48,765 bases of DNA from a virus (taxonomy: Duplodnaviria > Heunggongvirae > Uroviricota > Caudoviricetes): the IMG/VR virus record IMGVR_UViG_2877982868_000002. One strand, 5' to 3'. The notes under the pieces were generated by a model. That model had not been told where the DNA came from, did no database searches, and saw nothing but the letters and a program-made list of their open reading frames with translations. Below, piece by piece: positions 10,643 through 47,826 of this stretch. The number at the start of each line of letters is the position of its first letter. The stretch's first letter is position 1. The position numbers and the translations under genes were made by a program.

Positions 10643-10891
10643 ATGAGTAGAAGAGAAGTTTCAGATCACGATTGGCCGCCTGAAATCATCAAGGCGCGCT
10701 TACACATGGCTGGCTTATCACTGCGCTCTTTATCTTTAAAGGCTGGTTACAGCAGGGATTCGCTGAAAAGCGTATTACGTACTCCTTGCCGACCGTATCA
10801 GCAAATAATTGCTGATGCTCTTGGGGTATCGCCTGAAGAAATCTGGCCCAGTCGATACCAGGTTAAGAGCTATATGAGAAAGGCGTCATGA
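10643..10891 (+). CDS. ner: Ner-like DNA-binding protein (Ner/Nlp family)
   Basis: 82 aa; motifs SLRSLS..GYS..SL...L..PCRPYQQIIADALGVSPEEIWPSRYQ match Mu Ner; first gene of rightward early operon. Confidence 0.85.
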   Translation: MSRREVSDHDWPPEIIKARLHMAGLSLRSLSLKAGYSRDSLKSVLRTPCRPYQQIIADALGVSPEEIWPSRYQVKSYMRKAS

Positions 10892-10892
10892 T

Positions 10893-12983
10893 ATGTATGT
10901 CATTGCAAAAGAACTGATTGGCGCGCCCGGAATGCCTGCTACAACAAAAGGTATTCGCCAGGCATTACAACGTTACGTACAAGGGAAAAGCTGTTGTTCC
11001 CGTCGTCGCTCAGGCTCTAAAGCAACTGAATACAGCATCGACTGTTTACCTGAAGTGACGCAGCAGGCATTACGTGAACGCTACGCCCTGCAACTGATGA
11101 CGCAAAAAGTCGATGAATCACCGGCTCCGGTGGTGACAAAGGCCAGACGCTCGCCTGCCGTGGTTGATGCGGTGGAGGCATATCGCGGATCACCACAACT
11201 GATGGTCGAACGCCTTAATGCCCTGACTGAAAACCAGCGCCAGGTGGCTGATGCACGAATCGCGATCGTCAGCGAAGTTCTGAAAGTCGCGCAACAACCT
11301 GGTTTCAGCTGTGCGAAGGCTATCCGGTTTATCGTTGACAACCTGGCACGTTCGCAGCTGGACGAGCGCATTGTGGCAATGGTTGAGACGGCGAACGCCA
11401 AAAAGGGAAACAGCCGCGCGTTAAGTGAAATCACGCTGAAACGCTGGATTGCGGCCTTTAACAAGGCGCAGAACGCCGCTGAACGCCTGCTTTTACTGGC
11501 ACCGGGTAAGCGCCAGGAAATAAAAGCCGAAGATATTAACTGGCTGCCCGAATTTCTGGCGCAGTATCGCCAGTCAAACGGCCGACCAATGACCGAGGCT
11601 TACGAGGATTTTGTCGCTGAATGGCAGCACCGGCACGCTGATGAGCCTTATATGCTCGATATCATGCCGTCTTATGACACCATTCGCCGCGCAATGAAGA
11701 AACTGCCGGAAGTGGTGAAACAAAAAGGCCGGGTGACCGGCAGTGAATACCGCCAGCTTGAGGGATTCACGCGCCGCGACTGGTCAAAAATGCCGGTGAA
11801 TTATGTCTGGATTGGTGACGGTCACGGCATGAAGCTGAAATGCGCACACCCGGTTCACGGTCGGCCATTTGCACCGGAAGTGACCTTTGTTATCGACGGT
11901 GGCACGCGCTTTGTGGTGGGCTGGAGCCTTGACCTGGCTGAAAATGTTTTCGCCGTAGCCGGTGCCATACAGCACGGCATTCGCCATCACGGCAAACCGT
12001 TTCTGTATTACTCGGATAACGGCTCCGGGGAAACCGCCGACATCCTGGATAAGGAGGTTGTGGGGATACTGCCGCGACTGGGGATTAATCACCCGACCGG
12101 GATTGCCGGTAACCCGCAGGGACGGGGCATTATCGAACGGCTTAACCGCACATTACCGATGCGCATAGCCCGTAAATACCGCACCTATTTCGGGAAAGGT
12201 GCAGATCGCGAGACGTTACGCAAAACCAACCGCGATTTACGCTCGGCATTTACCGCCCTGCAACAGGGCAAACGGCTGAACGCCCGGCAACAGTCAGCGA
12301 TGCGTGATTTACCGTCCTGGGCTGAACTGATTGATGCCATTCGTGATGGTGTTGAGTGGTACAACAACCGGCCGCACGATGAATTACCGGTGAAGCCGAA
12401 CGGCAAGCATTACAGCCCGGCGGAGTTCAGAAAAAAACGCCTGGCGGAAGAGGACACGGAAATTGAATGGCTGTCCGATGTTGAGCTGCGGGATATGTTC
12501 CGGCCGATGGTGGAACGCCCTGTAAGACGCTGTGAAATACGCTGGCTGAATAATATTTACTACGCGCCCGAGCTGCGTGACGAGCATGGCCGTAAGGTGC
12601 TTATCAGCTATGACATTCATGATGCCGAACGAATTACCGTACGTCGCCTGGATGGCAGCGTGATTTGCGAGGCGGTATGGGACGGTAATAAACGCGAAGC
12701 CTTCCCGGTTAGCGCGGAATACTACAAACAGCAGCAACGCCTTAAAGGCATGCGTAAACGCGCAGAGGAAAAAATCCGTGATGCCGAGGATGAGGTTGTC
12801 AACGTGCTGGAGCACAAGCCGCAGGAGCCCTGGCTGGAAAACATATACCGCCCTGTGGGTAATACGGTGACCGTTCAGCAACCGGTCGCTGACGATGAAC
12901 CTGATGAAGAATACGAGCGTAATTTCCAGCGGGGATTGCAGTTGCTGGAAGCGAAATTAAAAGAAAATGACCCGCTGGCCTGA
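10893..12983 (+). CDS. A: DDE transposase (MuA-like)
   Basis: 696 aa; catalytic-core motifs VWIGDGHG, YSDNGSGE, GIIERLN; position after ner. Confidence 0.9.
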   Translation: MYVIAKELIGAPGMPATTKGIRQALQRYVQGKSCCSRRRSGSKATEYSIDCLPEVTQQALRERYALQLMTQKVDESPAPVVTKARRSPAVVDAVEAYRGSPQLMVERLNALTENQRQVADARIAIVSEVLKVAQQPGFSCAKAIRFIVDNLARSQLDERIVAMVETANAKKGNSRALSEITLKRWIAAFNKAQNAAERLLLLAPGKRQEIKAEDINWLPEFLAQYRQSNGRPMTEAYEDFVAEWQHRHADEPYMLDIMPSYDTIRRAMKKLPEVVKQKGRVTGSEYRQLEGFTRRDWSKMPVNYVWIGDGHGMKLKCAHPVHGRPFAPEVTFVIDGGTRFVVGWSLDLAENVFAVAGAIQHGIRHHGKPFLYYSDNGSGETADILDKEVVGILPRLGINHPTGIAGNPQGRGIIERLNRTLPMRIARKYRTYFGKGADRETLRKTNRDLRSAFTALQQGKRLNARQQSAMRDLPSWAELIDAIRDGVEWYNNRPHDELPVKPNGKHYSPAEFRKKRLAEEDTEIEWLSDVELRDMFRPMVERPVRRCEIRWLNNIYYAPELRDEHGRKVLISYDIHDAERITVRRLDGSVICEAVWDGNKREAFPVSAEYYKQQQRLKGMRKRAEEKIRDAEDEVVNVLEHKPQEPWLENIYRPVGNTVTVQQPVADDEPDEEYERNFQRGLQLLEAKLKENDPLA

Positions 12984-39912: not shown

Positions 39913-40342
39913 TATTGCTGTCGTCTGGGATCAGGGTTGCGGTTCCCTGCAACTGAACGGCGCAGATCTTCTGACGGATAACAGCCTGCTGACTGCGGTC
40001 ATTATTTCACTGTTTACGGACAGGCGGGCGCTGGATTCCGATGAAATCCCTGACGGCACCCGTGACCGTCGGGGATGGTGGGGAGACAGTTTCCGGGAGC
40101 GCCCCGTTGGCTCCCGTCTCTGGCTGTTAAGCCGTGAAAAGACGCTGTCCTCCGTGGTCAGCCGTGCACAGGCCTATGCTGATGAAGCGCTGGCGTGGCT
40201 GCATAAAAGCGGTGCTGCCACATCCGTGGTATGTCATGCCATGCGTGTGGGGCATGCTCGCCTTTCGCTTTCCGTGAAAATCACCCTGCCGGACGGAAGC
40301 AGACATCCGATGATTTTTTATGCTGATATGAAGGGGGAATGA
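39905..40342 (+). CDS. Baseplate protein, GPW/gp25-like
   Basis: ATG 39905 (MADIAVVWDQG...), 145 aa; track ORF starts upstream at 39692. Confidence 0.6.
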   Translation: MADIAVVWDQGCGSLQLNGADLLTDNSLLTAVIISLFTDRRALDSDEIPDGTRDRRGWWGDSFRERPVGSRLWLLSREKTLSSVVSRAQAYADEALAWLHKSGAATSVVCHAMRVGHARLSLSVKITLPDGSRHPMIFYADMKGE

Positions 40343-41424
40343 TGCCTTATCAGCCCTTACCACTGGCGCAACTGATCACACAGACACAACAGGATATCAG
40401 CCAGCGCCTGCCCGGTTCGCAGCCGGGCGTGAATGAAACCACCCTGAATGCCATTGCGTATGCACTGGCGGGTCTGTCAGCACAGGAGCATGAACATCTG
40501 GCCTGGATCTCCCGGCAGATAATTCCGACAGAAGCTGATGAAGCCGAACTCCTGAAACACTGCGCATTCTGGGGTGTCATCCGTAAACCGGCTTCCCGCG
40601 CTGACGGACCGGTACAACTGATGCTGACCACGGATGCAGGGATCACGGAAGGCGTACTCCTTCAGCGAAGCGATGGGGTTGTGTACCGCATCACCGGCTC
40701 TGCGACCGGAAAAGCCGGAACACTGAATGTTAATGTGGAGGCGGAAAGTGCGGGGCGCGCTGGAAATACCCCGACCGGAACCCGCCTGTCCTTTATCACG
40801 CCACAGGCGGGCATCAACCAGACAGCCACGGTCACCGGCACGGGACTCACCGGTGGTGCGGATGTGGAAACGGTGCCGGAGTTGCTGTCCAGGCTGGTAT
40901 TCCGGGTACAGAACCCGCCATCAGGGGGAACACAGTATGATTTTGAACGCTGGGCACGGGAAGTACCGGGCGTGACGCGGGCATGGTGTAAGCCTGAATG
41001 GCCTGAGGCGGGTAGTGTTGGTGTGACTTTTGTTCAGGATAATAACCCTGACATTTTCCCCGGAGAAGGTGATGTGAAGCGGGTGGCGGATTATATCCGC
41101 AGTCATGATGATCCGGCGACGGGCCAGCCCGTTGGTCAGCCACTTGGGCCGACAATCAGCGTGTTTAAGCTGACCAATAAGCCGGTGGCGTTTGAGATCA
41201 GGATTGTACCCAAAACGCCGGAAAATCAGGCTGCCGTAAAACAGGCATTAACAGACCTGCTTTATAACGAATCGCGGCCGGGTGGACTTGTATTGCCTTC
41301 ATCATTCTGGCGGGCTGTTGCAGGGGTGAAAGGACTGGAGGATTTTGAAGTTCGCAGCCCGCTGAAGTCCGTGATGGCCGGAGATACAGAGTTGCTGACC
41401 GTGGGGGAAATCACATGGCTGTAA
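40339..41424 (+). CDS. Baseplate J-like protein
   Basis: 361 aa; conserved position before gp48-like and tail fibre. Confidence 0.7.
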   Translation: MMPYQPLPLAQLITQTQQDISQRLPGSQPGVNETTLNAIAYALAGLSAQEHEHLAWISRQIIPTEADEAELLKHCAFWGVIRKPASRADGPVQLMLTTDAGITEGVLLQRSDGVVYRITGSATGKAGTLNVNVEAESAGRAGNTPTGTRLSFITPQAGINQTATVTGTGLTGGADVETVPELLSRLVFRVQNPPSGGTQYDFERWAREVPGVTRAWCKPEWPEAGSVGVTFVQDNNPDIFPGEGDVKRVADYIRSHDDPATGQPVGQPLGPTISVFKLTNKPVAFEIRIVPKTPENQAAVKQALTDLLYNESRPGGLVLPSSFWRAVAGVKGLEDFEVRSPLKSVMAGDTELLTVGEITWL

Positions 41425-41975
41425 TCCTGACCCCGCATCAGCGCGCCCTGTTGCAGTTGCTGCCTGACGGGCTGGCATGGGATAAGCGGCCGTCATCCGT
41501 TCTTGCGGCTTTGTGCCTGGGCCTCAGTCATTCCACGGAGCGTGTTTCCTGGACCGGTAACCAGATGCTGGCAGAACGTTTTCCTGATTCATCCCGTCTG
41601 CTGCTGGAAGACTGGGAGCGTTATCTGGGGTTACCGGAATGTGATATGACCGGCGCAACCATTCAGGAGCGTCAGCGTTATGCCGGGAATAAATACCGGA
41701 TGAAACCCTCTCTTAACCGTGAATTTTATATCCGGTTTGCGGCAGAGTTTGGTTATGAAATAGATATTCAGCCATCACCGGATTCACAGTGGGTCAGTAT
41801 TGTCACGATTAACAGTGAAACCGGCTACCGGAATATGAATGTGCTGGATGATATTCTCACGCCGCTGCGTATTTATGAAGGCGGTGCGCTGGAATGTATT
41901 CTGAACCGTTATAAGCCTGCATGGCAGACGTTTATTTACGTATATGCAAACAGTCACGAAGAGGAGAATATTTAA
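41415..41975 (+). CDS. Tail protein (Mu gp48-like)
   Basis: 186 aa; overlaps tail-fibre start (TAATG). Confidence 0.55.
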   Translation: MAVILTPHQRALLQLLPDGLAWDKRPSSVLAALCLGLSHSTERVSWTGNQMLAERFPDSSRLLLEDWERYLGLPECDMTGATIQERQRYAGNKYRMKPSLNREFYIRFAAEFGYEIDIQPSPDSQWVSIVTINSETGYRNMNVLDDILTPLRIYEGGALECILNRYKPAWQTFIYVYANSHEEENI

Positions 41976-42886
41976 TGTTCCATGTTGATAATAATTCCGG
42001 CGTGGCGAATATGCCTGCGCTGGCACCGGCGCAGAGTAATACCACCACCTGGTTTACCGAAGGTGACGGACAAAAAGGTATCAGCTGGATTGGTCAGGAC
42101 TGGCTGAATATTCTCCAGGCCGAACTGCTGAATATTCTGGCTGAAGCCAGTATTCAGCCGGATAAGGCGCAGTTAAACCAGCTTACGCTGTCCATTAAAG
42201 CCATTATCGCTGCGAATGCCTTTTCCCGGAAAAACAACCTGAAAGAAATTGCTGATGCCGGTGCGGAAGCCCAGCGTCTTGCCCGTGGTTATCTTGGTCT
42301 TGGGGCGCTTGCCACAAAAAACAGTCTTGGTCCCGGTGACGTTAATGCTCTGGCGAAGGATCAGAACCTTGCCGACCTGGAGAATGCGGGAACCGCCCGT
42401 AATAATCTGGATGTTTACAGCAAAAGCGAAGGTGATAACCGTTACCTGCGCAGGGAGCAGAACGGCGCAGACATTCCGGATAAAGGCGCTTTTATCGATA
42501 ACGTCGGTTTACGGGAAACGGTAAATAAGGCTGCTGATGCCCTGCCATCGGGTGGAACCGCCGTGGCAGCAAACAGACTCGCCACCCCAAGAAATATTAA
42601 TGGTGTTCCTTTTGACGGAACGCTGGATATCAACATCACGTCAGGAATGACGCAGTCAACCGCAGATGGCCGGTATGTACAGAATGTTCAGCTTGGAGCA
42701 CAGAGCTATCATTCACCCGGAGGCAATGAAATGTCATGGAATTACAGCGCACCTTCCGGTTGTATGCTTTCCGGAATTAACGTGCAGGAAACCGGCTCCC
42801 GGTCTGCGGACAATATCGGTGGGGTCTATTATCGCCCGGTTCAGATTTATATTAATAATGCCTGGAGAACGGTAAGTTCAGTGTAA
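41975..42886 (+). CDS. Tail fibre protein; C-terminal ~125 aa encoded inside invertible segment
   Basis: ATG 41975; C-terminal half shares ~50 aa near-identity with the minus-strand cassette, then diverges. Confidence 0.75.
   Translation: MFHVDNNSGVANMPALAPAQSNTTTWFTEGDGQKGISWIGQDWLNILQAELLNILAEASIQPDKAQLNQLTLSIKAIIAANAFSRKNNLKEIADAGAEAQRLARGYLGLGALATKNSLGPGDVNALAKDQNLADLENAGTARNNLDVYSKSEGDNRYLRREQNGADIPDKGAFIDNVGLRETVNKAADALPSGGTAVAANRLATPRNINGVPFDGTLDINITSGMTQSTADGRYVQNVQLGAQSYHSPGGNEMSWNYSAPSGCMLSGINVQETGSRSADNIGGVYYRPVQIYINNAWRTVSSV
42492..42517. repeat. gix-like invertase recombination site (left), inside tail-fibre gene
   Basis: TTATCGATAACG-TC-GGTTTACGGGAA; both half-sites resemble Gin/Hin half-site (TTATCCAAAACC / TTCCTGTAAACC). 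Confidence 0.6.
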
Positions 42887-43879
42887 ACCACAGAAAAGGG
42901 TGCTGAATGCACCCTCTGAATTATTCCGGTTTTTCCGGCCAGGGAATCGCCTGGTAATGCCCCTCACTGGCAATATCATTAAAGTGCATTTCTTTAAGCT
43001 GTCGGATATACGCCATCCAGCGCGTCAGCTGTAATTTATTTTCATCGCTAATCATGTCCAGTTTTAATTCCGTTTTCCAGTCATCCACAGTTTCGTTGGC
43101 TTCCTGGAGCAGCGATGAGCGGCGCTTTTCAGCAACCGTCTTCCAGTTTACCGGCACCTTTGATATCAGGCCATCAGAAAACTGCCAGTTACCGTCAATA
43201 TTCACACCTTCCGGCAGTTCGTCCACTTCAACAACAGTAAAACCTGCCGGATATAAAGCAGAGACATCTTCAGCAACAGAGCAGATAATACCCGTTACAG
43301 GCGAAATACAGAGTTTGTATTTCTTTGTGAAAAGCGGGATAGATTCATAAAAATCCCTTCCGTCCTCACTCTGGAAATACTGAACATCCTCACCATAGGG
43401 TTTGTGTTCCGGGTAATATCGTTTTACGTTAATAAGCTCCATTATTTCACCTTGTTTTTGTTGAAAAGACAAAATCATCATATATTTATTCAGATAATCT
43501 GTTTTTTGAACTACTGCACTTTTATGCGCTGGAAGCTGTTTTCCACGAACCATCTATCAGAAACTGAACAGGTCGATAATATGCGGTTACCGTTGCATTA
43601 CCATCACCAGCGACATCAAGCCCTGTAAGTACGCATCCGTCAGGAACCTCAAAAATATTATATTGCATTCCAATCGTTGACCTTGAACCTCTTCGAATGC
43701 TTTGAACATAACGTGAGTCAGCCACAGACTGCGTCATCCCCGATGTAATATTTATATCCTGCGTTCCGTCAAATGGGACACCATTAATATTTCTTGGAGT
43801 GGCGAGTTTATTCGCTGCAACAGCCGCTCCGTTCGATGGCAGGGCATTCGCGGCCCTGTTTACAGTATCCCGTAAACCG
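42505..43879. other. Gin-invertible host-range DNA segment (~1.4 kb)
   Basis: Bounded by inverted gix-like sites; carries plus-strand fibre tip, minus-strand alternative tip and minus-strand fibre-assembly gene; gin immediately adjacent. Confidence 0.6.
42921..43442 (-). CDS. Tail fibre assembly chaperone (Mu U/Tfa-like)
   Basis: ATG 43440-43442 (MELINVKRYYPEH...) with SD; C-terminus ...ISDENKLQLTRWMAY...PWPEKPE typical of Tfa family. Confidence 0.75.
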   Translation of the reverse strand: MELINVKRYYPEHKPYGEDVQYFQSEDGRDFYESIPLFTKKYKLCISPVTGIICSVAEDVSALYPAGFTVVEVDELPEGVNIDGNWQFSDGLISKVPVNWKTVAEKRRSSLLQEANETVDDWKTELKLDMISDENKLQLTRWMAYIRQLKEMHFNDIASEGHYQAIPWPEKPE

Positions 43880-43880
43880 A
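43522..43880 (-). CDS. Alternative tail-fibre C-terminal cassette (promoterless, no own start; expressed only after inversion)
   Basis: Minus-strand frame ...GLRDTVNRAANALPSNGAAVAANKLATPRNINGVPFDGTQDINITSGMTQS... parallels plus-strand fibre residues then diverges; stop at 43522. Confidence 0.55.
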
Positions 43881-43892
43881 GGTTTCAGGGAT
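43867..43892. repeat. gix-like invertase recombination site (right)
   Basis: ATCCCGTAAACC-GA-GGTTTCAGGGAT, imperfect palindrome, inverted relative to the left site. Confidence 0.6.
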
Positions 43893-43946: not shown

Positions 43947-44507
43947 ATGCTGATTGGCTATATACGCGTATCAACAAATGACCAGAACACAGGTTTACAA
44001 AGAAATGCGCTGGAATGTGCAGGATGTGAGCAGATTTTTGAAGATAAAATGAGTGGTAAAACGACACAGCGGCCGGGACTGAAGCGGGCACTGAAGAAAC
44101 TAAAACCCGGTGACACACTGATGGTCTGGAAACTGGACAGGCTGGGGCGCAGTATGCGCCACCTTGTTGCGCTGACAGATGAATTACAGCAACAGGGGAT
44201 AAATTTTCGTAGTCTTACTGACAACATTGATACGTCAACCCCCATGGGGCGCTTCTTTTTTCACATAATGGGTGCGCTGGCAGAAATGGAGCGTGAATTA
44301 ATTGTCGAACGGACACGGGCTGGTCTTGCAGCTGCCCGTGAAAGGGGACGAACCGGCGGCAGACCCCGTCGTCTCACGCAGGAACAATACGAGCAGGTCG
44401 GGCGTTTACTGGCCGGGGGTGTCAGTCGAAGACAGGTGGCACTTATTTTTGATATCGGCCTTTCAACCCTTTATCGTTATTATCCTGCGAGCGTTTCGGA
44501 AAAATAA
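43947..44507 (+). CDS. gin: Serine DNA invertase (Gin/Hin/Pin/Cin family)
   Basis: 186 aa; MLIGYIRVSTNDQ catalytic Ser motif, resolvase core, C-terminal HTH; SD aaggaagg. Confidence 0.9.
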   Translation: MLIGYIRVSTNDQNTGLQRNALECAGCEQIFEDKMSGKTTQRPGLKRALKKLKPGDTLMVWKLDRLGRSMRHLVALTDELQQQGINFRSLTDNIDTSTPMGRFFFHIMGALAEMERELIVERTRAGLAAARERGRTGGRPRRLTQEQYEQVGRLLAGGVSRRQVALIFDIGLSTLYRYYPASVSEK

Positions 44508-44606: not shown

Positions 44607-46646
44607 ATGACGTCCAAATGGGTTCAACTATCATCAATGCCCGGAAACTTTACTGTTAAAGTTTCCGGTGGTACAGCGGCATTTCTTGAGGCTCCCTTTC
44701 CTCCGGCCGAAACAAAAGGAGGAATGACATTTGCTGACTGTCTCATCAGTTTTAATACACGGGATTGCCTGTGGGTAAGGCCAGTATCCGGTGATCCGAG
44801 TGTGGAAATTACCGGAGCGGGTATTGGTGCGGTCATTCCGTTAAGTGCTGATGTTGCCGGTACTGCTGAACCGTCAGACTGGGATAATGCTGAAACACAT
44901 ACCCGTCCGTCAGGAAATGAAACTGCTTCCAGCTCCCCTTCCTGGTATTACGTGGTGGTTCTTGCTGGTCAGTCAAACGGTATGGCTTACGGTGAAGGTC
45001 TGCCACTGCCGGAGACATATGACCGCCCCGAACCGCGTATTATGCAGTTAGCCCGTCGCAGTACAGTCACGCCGGGAGGTAAAGCCTGTCAGTATAACGA
45101 CATCATTCTGGCCGACCACTGTCTGCATGATGTGCAGGATATGAGTGGAAAAAATCACCCGAAAGCGGATGTGGCTAAAGGGCAATATGGCACCGTGGGT
45201 CAGGGGCTTCACATTGCCAAAAAACTGCTGCCGTTTATTCCGGCAGATGCGGGGATTCTGCTGGTTCCCTGCTGCCGTGGTGGTTCTGCATTCACGGCGG
45301 GTGCTGACGGCACGTACAGTGACAACACGGGTGCTTCAGAGGACTCAGCCCGCTGGGGTGTGGATAAGCCGCTGTATAAGGACTTAATCAGCCGGACAAA
45401 AGCGGCACTGGCGAAGAACCCGAAAAACCGCCTGCTTGCTGTGGTGTGGATGCAGGGCGAGTTTGATATTGATGCGAAGCCGACGGAGCATTCCGCGCTG
45501 TTTCTGGCGATGGTGGAAAAATTCCGCGCAGACCTGGCTGAACAGGCGGAACAGTGTACCGGTGGCAGTGCTGCTGGCGTTCCGTGGATTTGTGGCGATA
45601 CCACGTATTTCTGGAAACAGAAAAATGAACCGGCATACCAGGCAATCTATGGCGGCTACAAAAACAAAACAGATAAAAACATTCATTTCGTTCCATTAAT
45701 GACAGATGAAAATGACGCGAATGTACCCACCAACAATCCGGCAGAAGACCCGGATATTGAATCCATTGGTTATTACGGCTCAACGTGGCGTAACAGTGCC
45801 GCCACCTGGACATCTGCGGACCGGGCCAGCCATTTCAGTTCATGGGCACGTCGTGGGATTATTTCCGACCGTCTGGCCACGGCAGTTCTGACTCATGCGG
45901 GGCGAACCACAGTAAAAGCCGATGTTCCATCTTCTGAAACTGAAGCACCAGTGCCGTCACCTTCAGAAACTGAAGCAGTAACCACAACACTGCTGTCTTA
46001 TCGTGTCAGTGAGTCAGAAGGAAATCTGAAAGCCCAGGGCTGGGAGCCGGCTGGCGGTAAAGCTGAAATTATCAGTGATGCAGGAGGCACAGGTGGTAAG
46101 GCAATGAAACTGACCAAGGAAACAGGTAAATCATCTTGGTATCTGGATCATGATGCCGGTACTGGTGCTGAACTGCTGAAAAATGGTGGTTTAATCAGTT
46201 GTCGTTTTAAAGTACCTGGCGACCTGGTGGCAAACCAGTATGTCATGGGGCTTTACTGGCCGGTTTCCTCTCTGCCGCAGGGTGTCACCCTGACAGGGGA
46301 TGCAGGGAATAATCTGCTGGCATCGTTCTACATCCAGACAGACGCAAAAGACCTGAATGTGATGTACCACAATGCAAAAGTGGCAACAAATAACCAGAAA
46401 CTGGGAACCTTTGGTGCATTTGATAATGAATGGCATACGCTGGCCTTCCGTTTTGCAGGAAATAACAGCCTTCAGGTTATTCCGGTTATTGATGGTCAGG
46501 ATGGTGCCGCGTTTACCCTGACGCAGTCACCAGTAGGAACTTTCCCGGTGGACAAACTCCGCGTAACGGATATCACAAAAAATGCAACTTACCCGGTGCT
46601 GATTGACAGCATTGTGGTGGAAGTGAAAAAAGCGGTAACAGAATAA
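44607..46646 (+). CDS. Multidomain carbohydrate esterase, SGNH/SASA-like (candidate sialate O-acetylesterase, NanS-p-like) with C-terminal putative glycan-binding domain
   Basis: 679 aa; VVLAGQSNGMAYGEG motif typical of SASA/SGNH esterases; Ser/Thr/Pro linker with SETEA duplication; located in cargo position between gin and com. Confidence 0.55.
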   Translation: MTSKWVQLSSMPGNFTVKVSGGTAAFLEAPFPPAETKGGMTFADCLISFNTRDCLWVRPVSGDPSVEITGAGIGAVIPLSADVAGTAEPSDWDNAETHTRPSGNETASSSPSWYYVVVLAGQSNGMAYGEGLPLPETYDRPEPRIMQLARRSTVTPGGKACQYNDIILADHCLHDVQDMSGKNHPKADVAKGQYGTVGQGLHIAKKLLPFIPADAGILLVPCCRGGSAFTAGADGTYSDNTGASEDSARWGVDKPLYKDLISRTKAALAKNPKNRLLAVVWMQGEFDIDAKPTEHSALFLAMVEKFRADLAEQAEQCTGGSAAGVPWICGDTTYFWKQKNEPAYQAIYGGYKNKTDKNIHFVPLMTDENDANVPTNNPAEDPDIESIGYYGSTWRNSAATWTSADRASHFSSWARRGIISDRLATAVLTHAGRTTVKADVPSSETEAPVPSPSETEAVTTTLLSYRVSESEGNLKAQGWEPAGGKAEIISDAGGTGGKAMKLTKETGKSSWYLDHDAGTGAELLKNGGLISCRFKVPGDLVANQYVMGLYWPVSSLPQGVTLTGDAGNNLLASFYIQTDAKDLNVMYHNAKVATNNQKLGTFGAFDNEWHTLAFRFAGNNSLQVIPVIDGQDGAAFTLTQSPVGTFPVDKLRVTDITKNATYPVLIDSIVVEVKKAVTE

Positions 46647-46792
46647 AAAAATCCCGCCGGTCATGATATGGCTGGCGGGAGCTACCTAACCCATAAAGGA
46701 AAATAAAAATACTCCCGAAGGAGTGGTTATCAGTCGCTTCGATGTTTTTACCCGATAACGAATTATGTAGTCAATATCAAAGGTAAGGTTAT

Positions 46793-46975
46793 ATGACATT
46801 CGTTCATACAATGCTGCTTTATTTCTGCGCTGTGGTCAGTGCGTTATATCTGGTGAGCGGTGGTTATAAGGTCATCAGAAATTATATTCGCCGTAAAATT
46901 GATGATGCGGCAGCTGAAAAACTCAGTAAAACAGCACAGGCACCGTCATCCCCAAACGACCCGACCCCGCTCTGA
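46793..46975 (+). CDS. Small membrane protein
   Basis: 60 aa; SD aaggtaagg; TM helix MLLYFCAVVSALYLVSGG. Confidence 0.4.
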   Translation: MTFVHTMLLYFCAVVSALYLVSGGYKVIRNYIRRKIDDAAAEKLSKTAQAPSSPNDPTPL

Positions 46976-47010
46976 TAACGGGGCAATATACCTGCAAAAG
47001 GAGAATATTC

Positions 47011-47256
47011 ATGCCAGAGATTAAAGGCACGGTTACTGAAGAGCTTGTCAAACAGGCACTTTATTCTGAAGAAGTGAACCGCGTGCTGAAGGCGCAGGTT
47101 CGCAAGGATTTTGAGGCACAAATCGACGCATATGTTGATGAAGTGCTGGCCCGAATGGTTGGCCGTTCTCCGGCTGAAAACAGCACGGAAAATGATCCTC
47201 AACCCGTAGAGCAACCAGAGCCGGTTCAGCCCGGAACTGACGGTACTATGATGTAA
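47011..47256 (+). CDS. Small acidic hypothetical protein
   Basis: 81 aa; strong SD aaaggagaa; followed by hairpin terminator. Confidence 0.45.
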   Translation: MPEIKGTVTEELVKQALYSEEVNRVLKAQVRKDFEAQIDAYVDEVLARMVGRSPAENSTENDPQPVEQPEPVQPGTDGTMM

Positions 47257-47285: not shown

Positions 47286-47574
47286 GTGAGTTTGTTAATG
47301 CACGTTTTGTGTATTTTCCCTCCTGGGAGAACAGGCAGGACATATCAGCATCCTGAAACAGGAAGCATTTTTGGGTTTGTATGTCTTGCCATTTTGAGAT
47401 CGAGAACGGCGATAGATGAGCTGTAAGGGAGTCTTACAGGCAGGGCAAACAGGCTCTTTCATCCATGATAAAGATCTCCTTTTTATGCATCTCTGCTTTA
47501 CAGGAGACCGGGGAATATCATAGGATACGCCACGAGCTCGAAGTAAAGCATTGATGCAAGTTTTTACAGATTGA

Positions 47575-47600
47575 CCCAGCATAGTTCCAGCTATGCTGGG
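47575..47600. terminator. Strong hairpin flanked by T-runs (possible bidirectional terminator/insulator upstream of com-mom)
   Basis: CCCAGCATAG-ttccag-CTATGCTGGG perfect 10-bp stem; TTTTT upstream and TTTCACTTTT downstream. Confidence 0.45.
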
Positions 47601-47652
47601 TTTCACTTTTATGTAGTATCCTGTTGATTTGAAACATACTACATATACGCGT

Positions 47653-47826
47653 GATCCTACCTTCACTGTATAAAAAGTCAATAAAATGATCATTTTATGA
47701 TCGTTTTCACCACCTAACTCTTCGTTTTCTTTAAGTAAATAATCACCTCCCTGAATCATTGTTGATGACTTTTCAATCTATTTGTTGTATCAATTAAACA
47801 AATCGAATCGATCGTTTTTGTCGATC
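47653..47826. promoter_or_regulatory. com-mom regulatory leader with clustered Dam (GATC) sites
   Basis: GATC at 47653, 47688, 47699 (three within 50 bp) and at 47810, 47823 (in CGATCG context), all upstream of com ATG. Confidence 0.4.

Follow-up and report, generated by a model that had tools for sequence, protein, structure and literature searches.

How does a phage that alternates between two tail-fibre tips manage with a single fibre-assembly chaperone? The question is raised by a Mu-like prophage in the IMG/VR virus record IMGVR_UViG_2877982868_000002, a stretch of 48,765 bp that is referred to here, at its full length, as the window. The prophage is of the Sp18 type, which is found in Escherichia coli O157:H7 and other Shiga toxin-producing E. 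coli (STEC). Its fibre gene runs into an invertible DNA segment, such that a constant part (Sc) is joined to the tip Sv in the orientation present in the window and to the alternative tip S'v in the other. The only tail-fibre assembly (Tfa) gene is coupled to S'v. An earlier note on this DNA had offered two readings of the layout: either Sv needs no dedicated chaperone, or the window orientation yields assembly-deficient fibres. We find that the one-Tfa asymmetry is most likely a clade-wide, conserved and selected design, a long-standing variant of the Mu G segment rather than a defect. The features of the switch are as follows.

41975–42886, plus strand: fibre gene S as now assembled (Sc + Sv), an open reading frame (ORF) of 303 aa
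41975–42504, plus strand: constant part Sc, outside the invertible segment and 5' of the left crossover site, with 46% identity to the N-terminus of Mu S
42492–42517: left gix-like site, TTATCGATAACG TC GGTTTACGGGAA, half-site position weight matrix (PWM) score 27.4
42500–42681, plus strand: left arm of a 182-nt inverted repeat, 79% complementary, encoding a shaft piece common to both arms of the segment
42504–43880: invertible segment, about 1.37 kb long and bounded by the central dinucleotides of the two sites
42506–42886, plus strand: Sv arm, 126 aa, the tip without a downstream chaperone
42921–43442, minus strand: sole Tfa gene, 173 aa (Caudo_TAP PF02413, E = 1.9e-18; Mu U 5yvq_B, E = 2e-15)
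43522–43878, minus strand: S'v arm, 118 aa, the alternative tip, without its own start or promoter, joining Sc upon inversion
43703–43884, minus strand: right arm of the 182-nt inverted repeat
43867–43892: right gix-like site, ATCCCGTAAACC GA GGTTTCAGGGAT, PWM score 28.8
43947–44507, plus strand: Gin/Pin/Hin-family serine DNA invertase, 186 aa (Resolvase 1.4e-51, HTH_7 1.7e-14)

The locus is a Mu G-type inversion system: an invertase and gix sites are present, the alternative fusions are in frame, and both orientations occur in nature. The gix-like sites are 26 bp long and inverted, lie one at each end of the segment, and have complementary central dinucleotides (TC and GA). A half-site PWM scan, which as a positive control recovered Mu gixL and gixR at the annotated boundaries of the G segment, identified no third gix-like site in the window (next-best score, 15.8). 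As only these two sites are present in the window, separate flipping of Tfa or of one tip via extra sites was ruled out. Over 181 aa the invertase shows 75% identity to Mu Gin. In its gene, the first 200 nt, where a Fis-dependent recombinational enhancer would be expected, did not clearly exceed the remainder in nucleotide identity to Mu gin. By recombining the gix-like sites in the fibre gene, the invertase fuses Sc either to Sv, as in the window, or to S'v.

Both tips belong to the family of the Mu S tip. Residues 1–198 of the fibre matched Mu S (5yvq_A, 3e-43), and the tip (residues 229–302) matched residues 435–503 of Mu S (8e-5) and also the short tail fibre 9cuy_c (1.4e-15). Sv shares 57–62% identity with the tips of P2-like gpH and SfMu gp52, S'v shares 51–57% with that of Hafnia phage yong1 gp74, and both are about 40% identical to the tip of Mu S. 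An alignment of 14 sequences comprising Sv, S'v, Mu S and S', P2-like gpH, SfMu, phAPEC8, CR8, yong1 and variant tips defined one tip family; the last ~70 residues are homologous to the tip domains of Mu S and P2 H, including the (Y/F)(Y/I)RP(V/I)Q...NG.W motif.

The earlier note had stated that no assembly gene follows the expressed fibre on the plus strand, and that the only Tfa-like gene is antisense and coupled to the alternative tip. Both statements held. The next gene after the fibre is Tfa on the minus strand, and inversion of 42504–43880 in silico produced an in-frame Sc + S'v fibre followed by Tfa, an arrangement to which real genomes are 100% identical. Orientation was scored among complete E. 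coli genomes by requiring at least 80% query coverage by the window or by the in-silico flipped sequence. The window state was found in 181 genomes and the flipped state in 23 (181/204, 89%), counts that are inflated by clonal sampling of O157:H7. Three of the 23 flipped-state genomes were identical (100.0%) to the in-silico flipped sequence. From these data we conclude that the segment is an active Gin-type invertible host-range switch that inverts in nature, with Tfa lying downstream in the late operon only when S'v is ON. E. coli 07_3636 (NZ_CP074928.1) carries two copies, at 4689361–4692081 and 2102889–2105609, in opposite orientations and both 100% identical.

The assignment of Tfa is based on a PF02413 match of 67.3 bits (cut-off, 22.1), and its homology to TfaMu spans residues 17–147. 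The possibility that another chaperone gene lies elsewhere in the prophage had also been raised; a tblastn search with 11 Tfa proteins and a hidden Markov model (HMM) built from them identified no second Tfa in the 48,765-bp window.

IMG/VR was scanned with an alignment of the Sc region, and the resulting 78 loci were annotated using HMMs for Sc, tip, Tfa and invertase. This allowed the comparison with two-chaperone segments that had been suggested. All 13 complete Mu-proper segments (Sc 42–49% identical to that of Sp18) read tip (+), Tfa (+), Tfa (−), tip (−), invertase, whereas all 21 complete Sp18-type segments (Sc 61–100% identical), a count that takes in three RefSeq loci, read tip, Tfa, tip, invertase, with a single Tfa. 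The ON tip in these 21 segments was the Tfa-less one in 14 cases and the coupled one in seven. The single-Tfa layout spans two Gin lineages (98–100% and 81% identical to Sp18 Gin) and three Tfa allele groups that are 68–98% identical. The Tfa-less arm in E. coli always carries an xADNxGGVYY-type tip, represented by two subtypes and 12 nucleotide alleles, 11 of them intact ORFs; the coupled arm carries three unrelated tip types. One IMG/VR locus (L058, 6278–7307) seems degraded, as its Tfa-less tip is apparently frameshifted and its invertase match is shorter than elsewhere.

A relative in Citrobacter braakii ATCC 51113 (L005; Sc 73% identical) contains three gix-like sites (6812, 8839 and 9205), three tip cassettes and one Tfa. 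Here Tfa is coupled to the xADNxGGVYY tip, and another cassette, upstream of that tip, would likewise precede this Tfa after inversion. Positions 9934–11486 of this locus, after the invertase, hold a fibre gene with collagen repeats that is accompanied by its own DUF4376-type Tfa. A scan of genome contigs with the whole fibre protein returned mostly unrelated NINGVPFDG-motif proteins, with C. braakii and Edwardsiella as the sole informative matches. Elsewhere in IMG/VR, invertase-linked segments were heterogeneous, and the Tfa HMM detects only part of their Tfa proteins, so single-Tfa counts are unreliable there. A pin-type segment of an unrelated phage (L185, 5261–6933, IMG/VR) has a collar-type tip plus Caudo_TAP versus an unrelated tip plus a 90-aa unknown ORF, which may be a different kind of chaperone asymmetry. 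The literature searched does not describe the single-Tfa layout beyond the terms 'atypical' and 'distinct from Mu' (PMC2669165).

Whether the Tfa-less tip is functional was addressed using the ratio of nonsynonymous to synonymous substitution (dN/dS). Pairwise Nei-Gojobori comparisons among alleles over the last 78 codons gave a dN/dS of 0.04–0.15 for the Sv-type tip at a synonymous divergence (dS) of 0.7 to >2, values that could partly reflect selection in other phages with a Tfa in cis, since tips recombine. The dN/dS of the Tfa-less tip was similar to that of Tfa. Judged from these substitution patterns, the Tfa-less tip is under strong purifying selection. A Tfa lies 0–8 nt beyond the homologous tip in every other context examined (Mu, SfMu, P2-like, phAPEC8, CR8 and yong1). 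As homologous tips directly precede Tfa in all of these contexts, gene order marks the Sv tip as a real exception within a chaperone-associated tip family.

The element that carries the switch has also moved recently. More than 130 complete E. coli genomes, O157:H7 and O111:H8 among them, contain a locus that is 100% identical to a 2.7-kb stretch around the fibre switch, and the same region is labelled 'inserted Bacteriophage Mu-like phage' in two Stx-phage records. Identical prophages are inserted in an Ig-repeat adhesin gene (the window), in bcsA (PA20), by a lambdoid terminase gene (M7638) and in Stx phages, and recent movement is indicated because identical prophages occupy different sites. 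Sp18 was judged to be intact, was induced spontaneously, had its DNA packaged and gave Mu-like contractile particles in electron microscopy (PMC2669165, Asadulghani et al.). From the induction, packaging and particles described in that study, together with the varied insertion sites, we conclude that the Sp18-type prophage is an active element.

The overall picture, which we consider probable, is that throughout the clade a tip from a family that is elsewhere always accompanied by Tfa works without a chaperone in cis. Either this tip is chaperone-independent, in which case the switch would toggle between naked and Tfa-capped fibres, or a Tfa that is universal for interchangeable tips is made from an as yet unrecognised, orientation-independent late promoter. 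Our ranking of the specific explanations places a shared generalist Tfa first, followed by a Tfa-independent Sv, then supply of Tfa in trans, and finally a defective orientation.

Passages of PMC8174754, PMC9608196 and PMC7882524 state that Mu fibre production requires co-expression of TfaMu (citing North et al. 2019), and that the variable N-domain of Tfa binds the tip and its conserved C-domain drives trimerisation. According to passages of the first two of these papers, TfaMu remains on the mature fibre and aids binding to lipopolysaccharide (LPS). The complex of the Mu S tip with TfaMu is PDB 5YVQ. Several findings bear on how many tips one Tfa could serve. Tfa proteins that are 98% identical are paired with unrelated tips in Sp18 and in the IMG/VR locus L044, and there is free mixing of Tfa groups I, II and III with the three coupled tip types and the two Tfa-less subtypes. 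The closest phage relative of the Sp18 Tfa N-domain is that of phage 186 Tfa (50.5%); the next closest are those of CR8, phiTE and POP18 (42–43%), each paired with an Sv-like tip. The single Tfa of C. braakii lies downstream of two different tip cassettes. Because Tfa pairs with unrelated tips, its groups mix freely and its N-domain kin sit with Sv-like tips, the Sp18 Tfa looks like a generalist, and it could plausibly serve Sv.

The explanation that we tentatively favour, while giving it somewhat less than an even chance, is that both tips work and that one generalist Tfa serves whichever tip is expressed. Both Sv and S'v would make working fibres, the single TfaMu-family protein would act on the tip that is ON, and in the Sv-ON state Tfa would be made from a transcript of its own. 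The start of this transcript would be located in the long A+T-rich spacer ahead of Tfa or upstream of that spacer, and this step is the weakest link of the model. Two further features flank the Tfa gene.

42895–42917, minus strand: G+C-rich, terminator-like hairpin in the 34-nt gap between the convergent stops of fibre and Tfa, with its T-tract on the Tfa-sense strand
43443–43521, minus strand: A+T-rich spacer of 79 nt from the S'v stop to the Tfa start, containing a TATGAT −10-like hexamer

The hairpin is kept, with loop changes, in two other Sp18-type loci (L043 and L044). The distance from tip to Tfa is 51–121 nt in single-Tfa segments compared to 0–8 nt in Mu, SfMu, P2-like, phAPEC8, CR8 and yong1, and among the contexts compared an A+T-rich spacer with a −10-like hexamer precedes Tfa in single-Tfa segments alone. 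Several points weigh against a shared Tfa with its own transcript, and against a working Sv more generally, in addition to the clonal sampling and tip recombination mentioned above. The 79-nt spacer contains no consensus −35 element, and none of the three spacer types (Sp18, L043 and L044) contains a sigma-70 promoter upstream of Tfa that reaches the consensus threshold. A Mu C-dependent late promoter was likewise rejected, as neither the Mu C box (CATAAYCCC) nor the putative late-promoter box of Sp18 itself (WAWYCCGCA) occurs upstream of Tfa; a match with two mismatches at 43235 is on the wrong strand and lacks the core. As the three spacers are not homologous to one another, they may be recombination scars and not regulatory DNA. 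Finally, no infectivity or expression results for either orientation were found in the literature searched.

The WAWYCCGCA box itself occurs on the plus strand at 20616, 28508 and 37678, which places it 5' of lys-like and protease I-like genes and inside an N-like gene; the third copy lies about 500 nt ahead of a P-like gene. These boxes are candidate C-dependent late promoters of Sp18 (lys, I and P) that differ in detail from those of Mu. An antisense ORF within Tfa that is co-oriented with Sv (43054–43350, 98 aa) was rejected as a candidate gene because it is open in Tfa allele group I alone and closed in groups II and III.

A less probable explanation, to which we give roughly one chance in three at best, is that Tfa is dispensable for folding and function of the Sv-type tip, in which case inversion would alternate between a naked tip and one capped by Tfa. 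As Mu Tfa stays on the fibre and helps it to bind LPS, each flip would then exchange the tip and at the same time add or remove an accessory adhesin. This would account for the absence of a Tfa co-oriented with Sv in 21/21 segments, for the failure to find a Tfa promoter for the Sv-ON state, and for the single xADNxGGVYY signature of the Tfa-less arm in E. coli as opposed to three other types in the coupled arm. It is also consistent with a tip that works, as purifying selection and its predominance as the ON tip indicate, and with the retention of TfaMu on the mature fibre, where it assists LPS binding in the passages cited above (PMC8174754, PMC9608196). However, tips that are 55–62% identical directly precede Tfa in a P2-like phage, SfMu, CR8 and phAPEC8, the xADNxGGVYY tip is itself Tfa-coupled in C. 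braakii, and the 14-sequence alignment revealed no extra domain or extension in Sv that might act as an internal chaperone. Moreover, a different tip subtype lacks Tfa in C. braakii, which argues that Tfa-less status follows position in the segment and not tip type. Sequence alone does not separate a Tfa-independent tip from a shared generalist Tfa. Sv might instead need Tfa and obtain it in trans from DNA elsewhere in the cell, candidates being sister copies inverted in the course of replicative transposition, an additional resident copy and the Tfa genes of co-resident prophages; in addition, late read-through past a weak hairpin on the Sv side into gin might raise invertase levels. We consider this unlikely. 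One strain does hold two copies in opposite states, the hairpin T-tract is on the Tfa-sense strand alone in Sp18 and L044, such that late transcripts may run toward gin, and STEC strains have many Tfa-encoding prophages (PMC2669165). Against this, a conserved architecture is unlikely to depend on chance co-residents, traces of Tfa may be insufficient given the stoichiometric binding of TfaMu to the fibre, and the L043 hairpin is scored as a terminator for Sv-sense transcription. Inversion of the Mu G segment is also slow relative to one lytic cycle.

The remaining explanation is that a Tfa once present after Sv was lost by deletion, that the window orientation gives unassembled fibres, and that the segment is decaying. 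We regard this as very improbable. The tip family is Tfa-dependent in Mu, neither a chaperone in cis nor a Tfa promoter was found, one allele (L058) looks frameshifted, and the host-specificity function of Sp18 was scored 'atypical' by Asadulghani et al. (PMC2669165), all of which decay would explain. It does not explain a layout kept in 21/21 relatives across saturated synonymous divergence, the low dN/dS of the Tfa-less tip, the 89% of complete genomes in the Sv-ON state, or identical prophages at several insertion sites in several serotypes. Because the layout is conserved, the tip is constrained, Sv is predominantly ON and identical prophages have spread recently, an assembly-deficient window orientation appears unlikely. 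The two options of the earlier note are thus not equally likely, given 21/21 conservation, a dN/dS of 0.04–0.15 and 181/204 genomes with Sv ON: the absence of a need for a dedicated chaperone survives, as either a shared generalist Tfa or a Tfa-independent tip, and assembly deficiency fits poorly.

The Sp18 switch shares most of its organization with the Mu G segment (S-U / U'-S'), which is also present in D108 and SfMu. In both, a Gin-family invertase lies directly to the right, two inverted 26-bp gix-type sites bound the segment, the left site is inside the fibre gene at the GL(R/Q)ETVN(K/R)A position, and the locus is located between gp48 and com/mom. Sc is homologous to residues 1–198 of Mu S, and the tips and Tfa are of the Mu S tip and TfaMu families. 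The differences are that Mu has two Tfa genes, one per tip (S-U and S'-U'), whereas Sp18 has one; that the segment is 1.37 kb in Sp18 versus 3 kb in Mu and the fibre 303 aa versus 504 aa; that the spacer between tip and Tfa is 79 nt versus 2 nt; and that Sp18 has a 182-nt coding stretch repeated in both arms. The Sp18 Tfa resembles TfaMu (Mu gp50/U, 5YVQ chain B) in being a PF02413 member of similar length (173 vs 175 aa) encoded just after a fibre tip. However, it is only 28–31% identical to Mu U and U', and alternative tips share its gene. Conservation within the Sp18 clade is higher in the N-terminal, fibre-binding half of Tfa than in the C-terminal half (about 75% vs 50% between groups I and II, estimated by eye), which is the reverse of the usual Tfa pattern.

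Gin-family invertases also swap fibre C-termini in the Min system of plasmid p15B, the C segment of P1 (Cin) and the P segment of e14 (Pin), and the P1 and e14 segments have one Tfa per alternative tip. P1 U is a distant relative of the Sp18 Tfa (35% identical). The C. braakii relative, with its three crossover sites and three tip cassettes, resembles multiple-inversion systems, from which the Sp18-type segment differs in having two sites and a single Tfa. Homologous tips (39–62% identical) with a homologous Tfa also occur as the fixed pairs gpH/gpG of P2-like phages, gp091/gp090 of phAPEC8, gp028/gp029 of CR8 and gp74/gp75 of yong1, but there Tfa lies within 0–8 nt of the tip and no invertase is present.

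RefSeq annotation at identical loci matches our gene calls and names the fibre ORF 'tail fiber protein'. Upstream of the fibre are two genes.

40339–41424: baseplate J/gp47 gene
41415–41975: Mu gp48/YmfQ gene

On the 3' side of the fibre region are, in order, the Gin-type invertase, an accessory ("moron") gene block, com and mom. The accessory block (44607–47256), which has no counterpart in Mu, encodes a 679-aa SASA-esterase/DUF6645 protein, DUF1378 and DUF826, and is accompanied by a 154-aa gene of unknown function at 47295–47759 (minus strand). We take the block to resemble the nanS-p region of lambdoid Stx phages. At the other end, a giant Ig-repeat (Big_13) ORF extends from the window start to 9684, with a TGA at 9682–9684 that is seemingly inside the first bases of the left end of the prophage (9672–9850 region). 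The prophage thus appears to be inserted within an adhesin gene. Repeated TTTGATAC motifs follow the left end and resemble transposase-binding sites.

In phage and tailocin host-range engineering, Tfa chaperones are treated as obligatory, tip-specific partners. If two or three tips do share one Tfa, or if one tip does without, Sp18-type segments would reveal the real specificity of these chaperones and would provide a minimal tip-plus-chaperone cassette for retargeting. The answer also bears on the infectivity of a widespread STEC prophage in the orientation carried by about 90% of sequenced strains.

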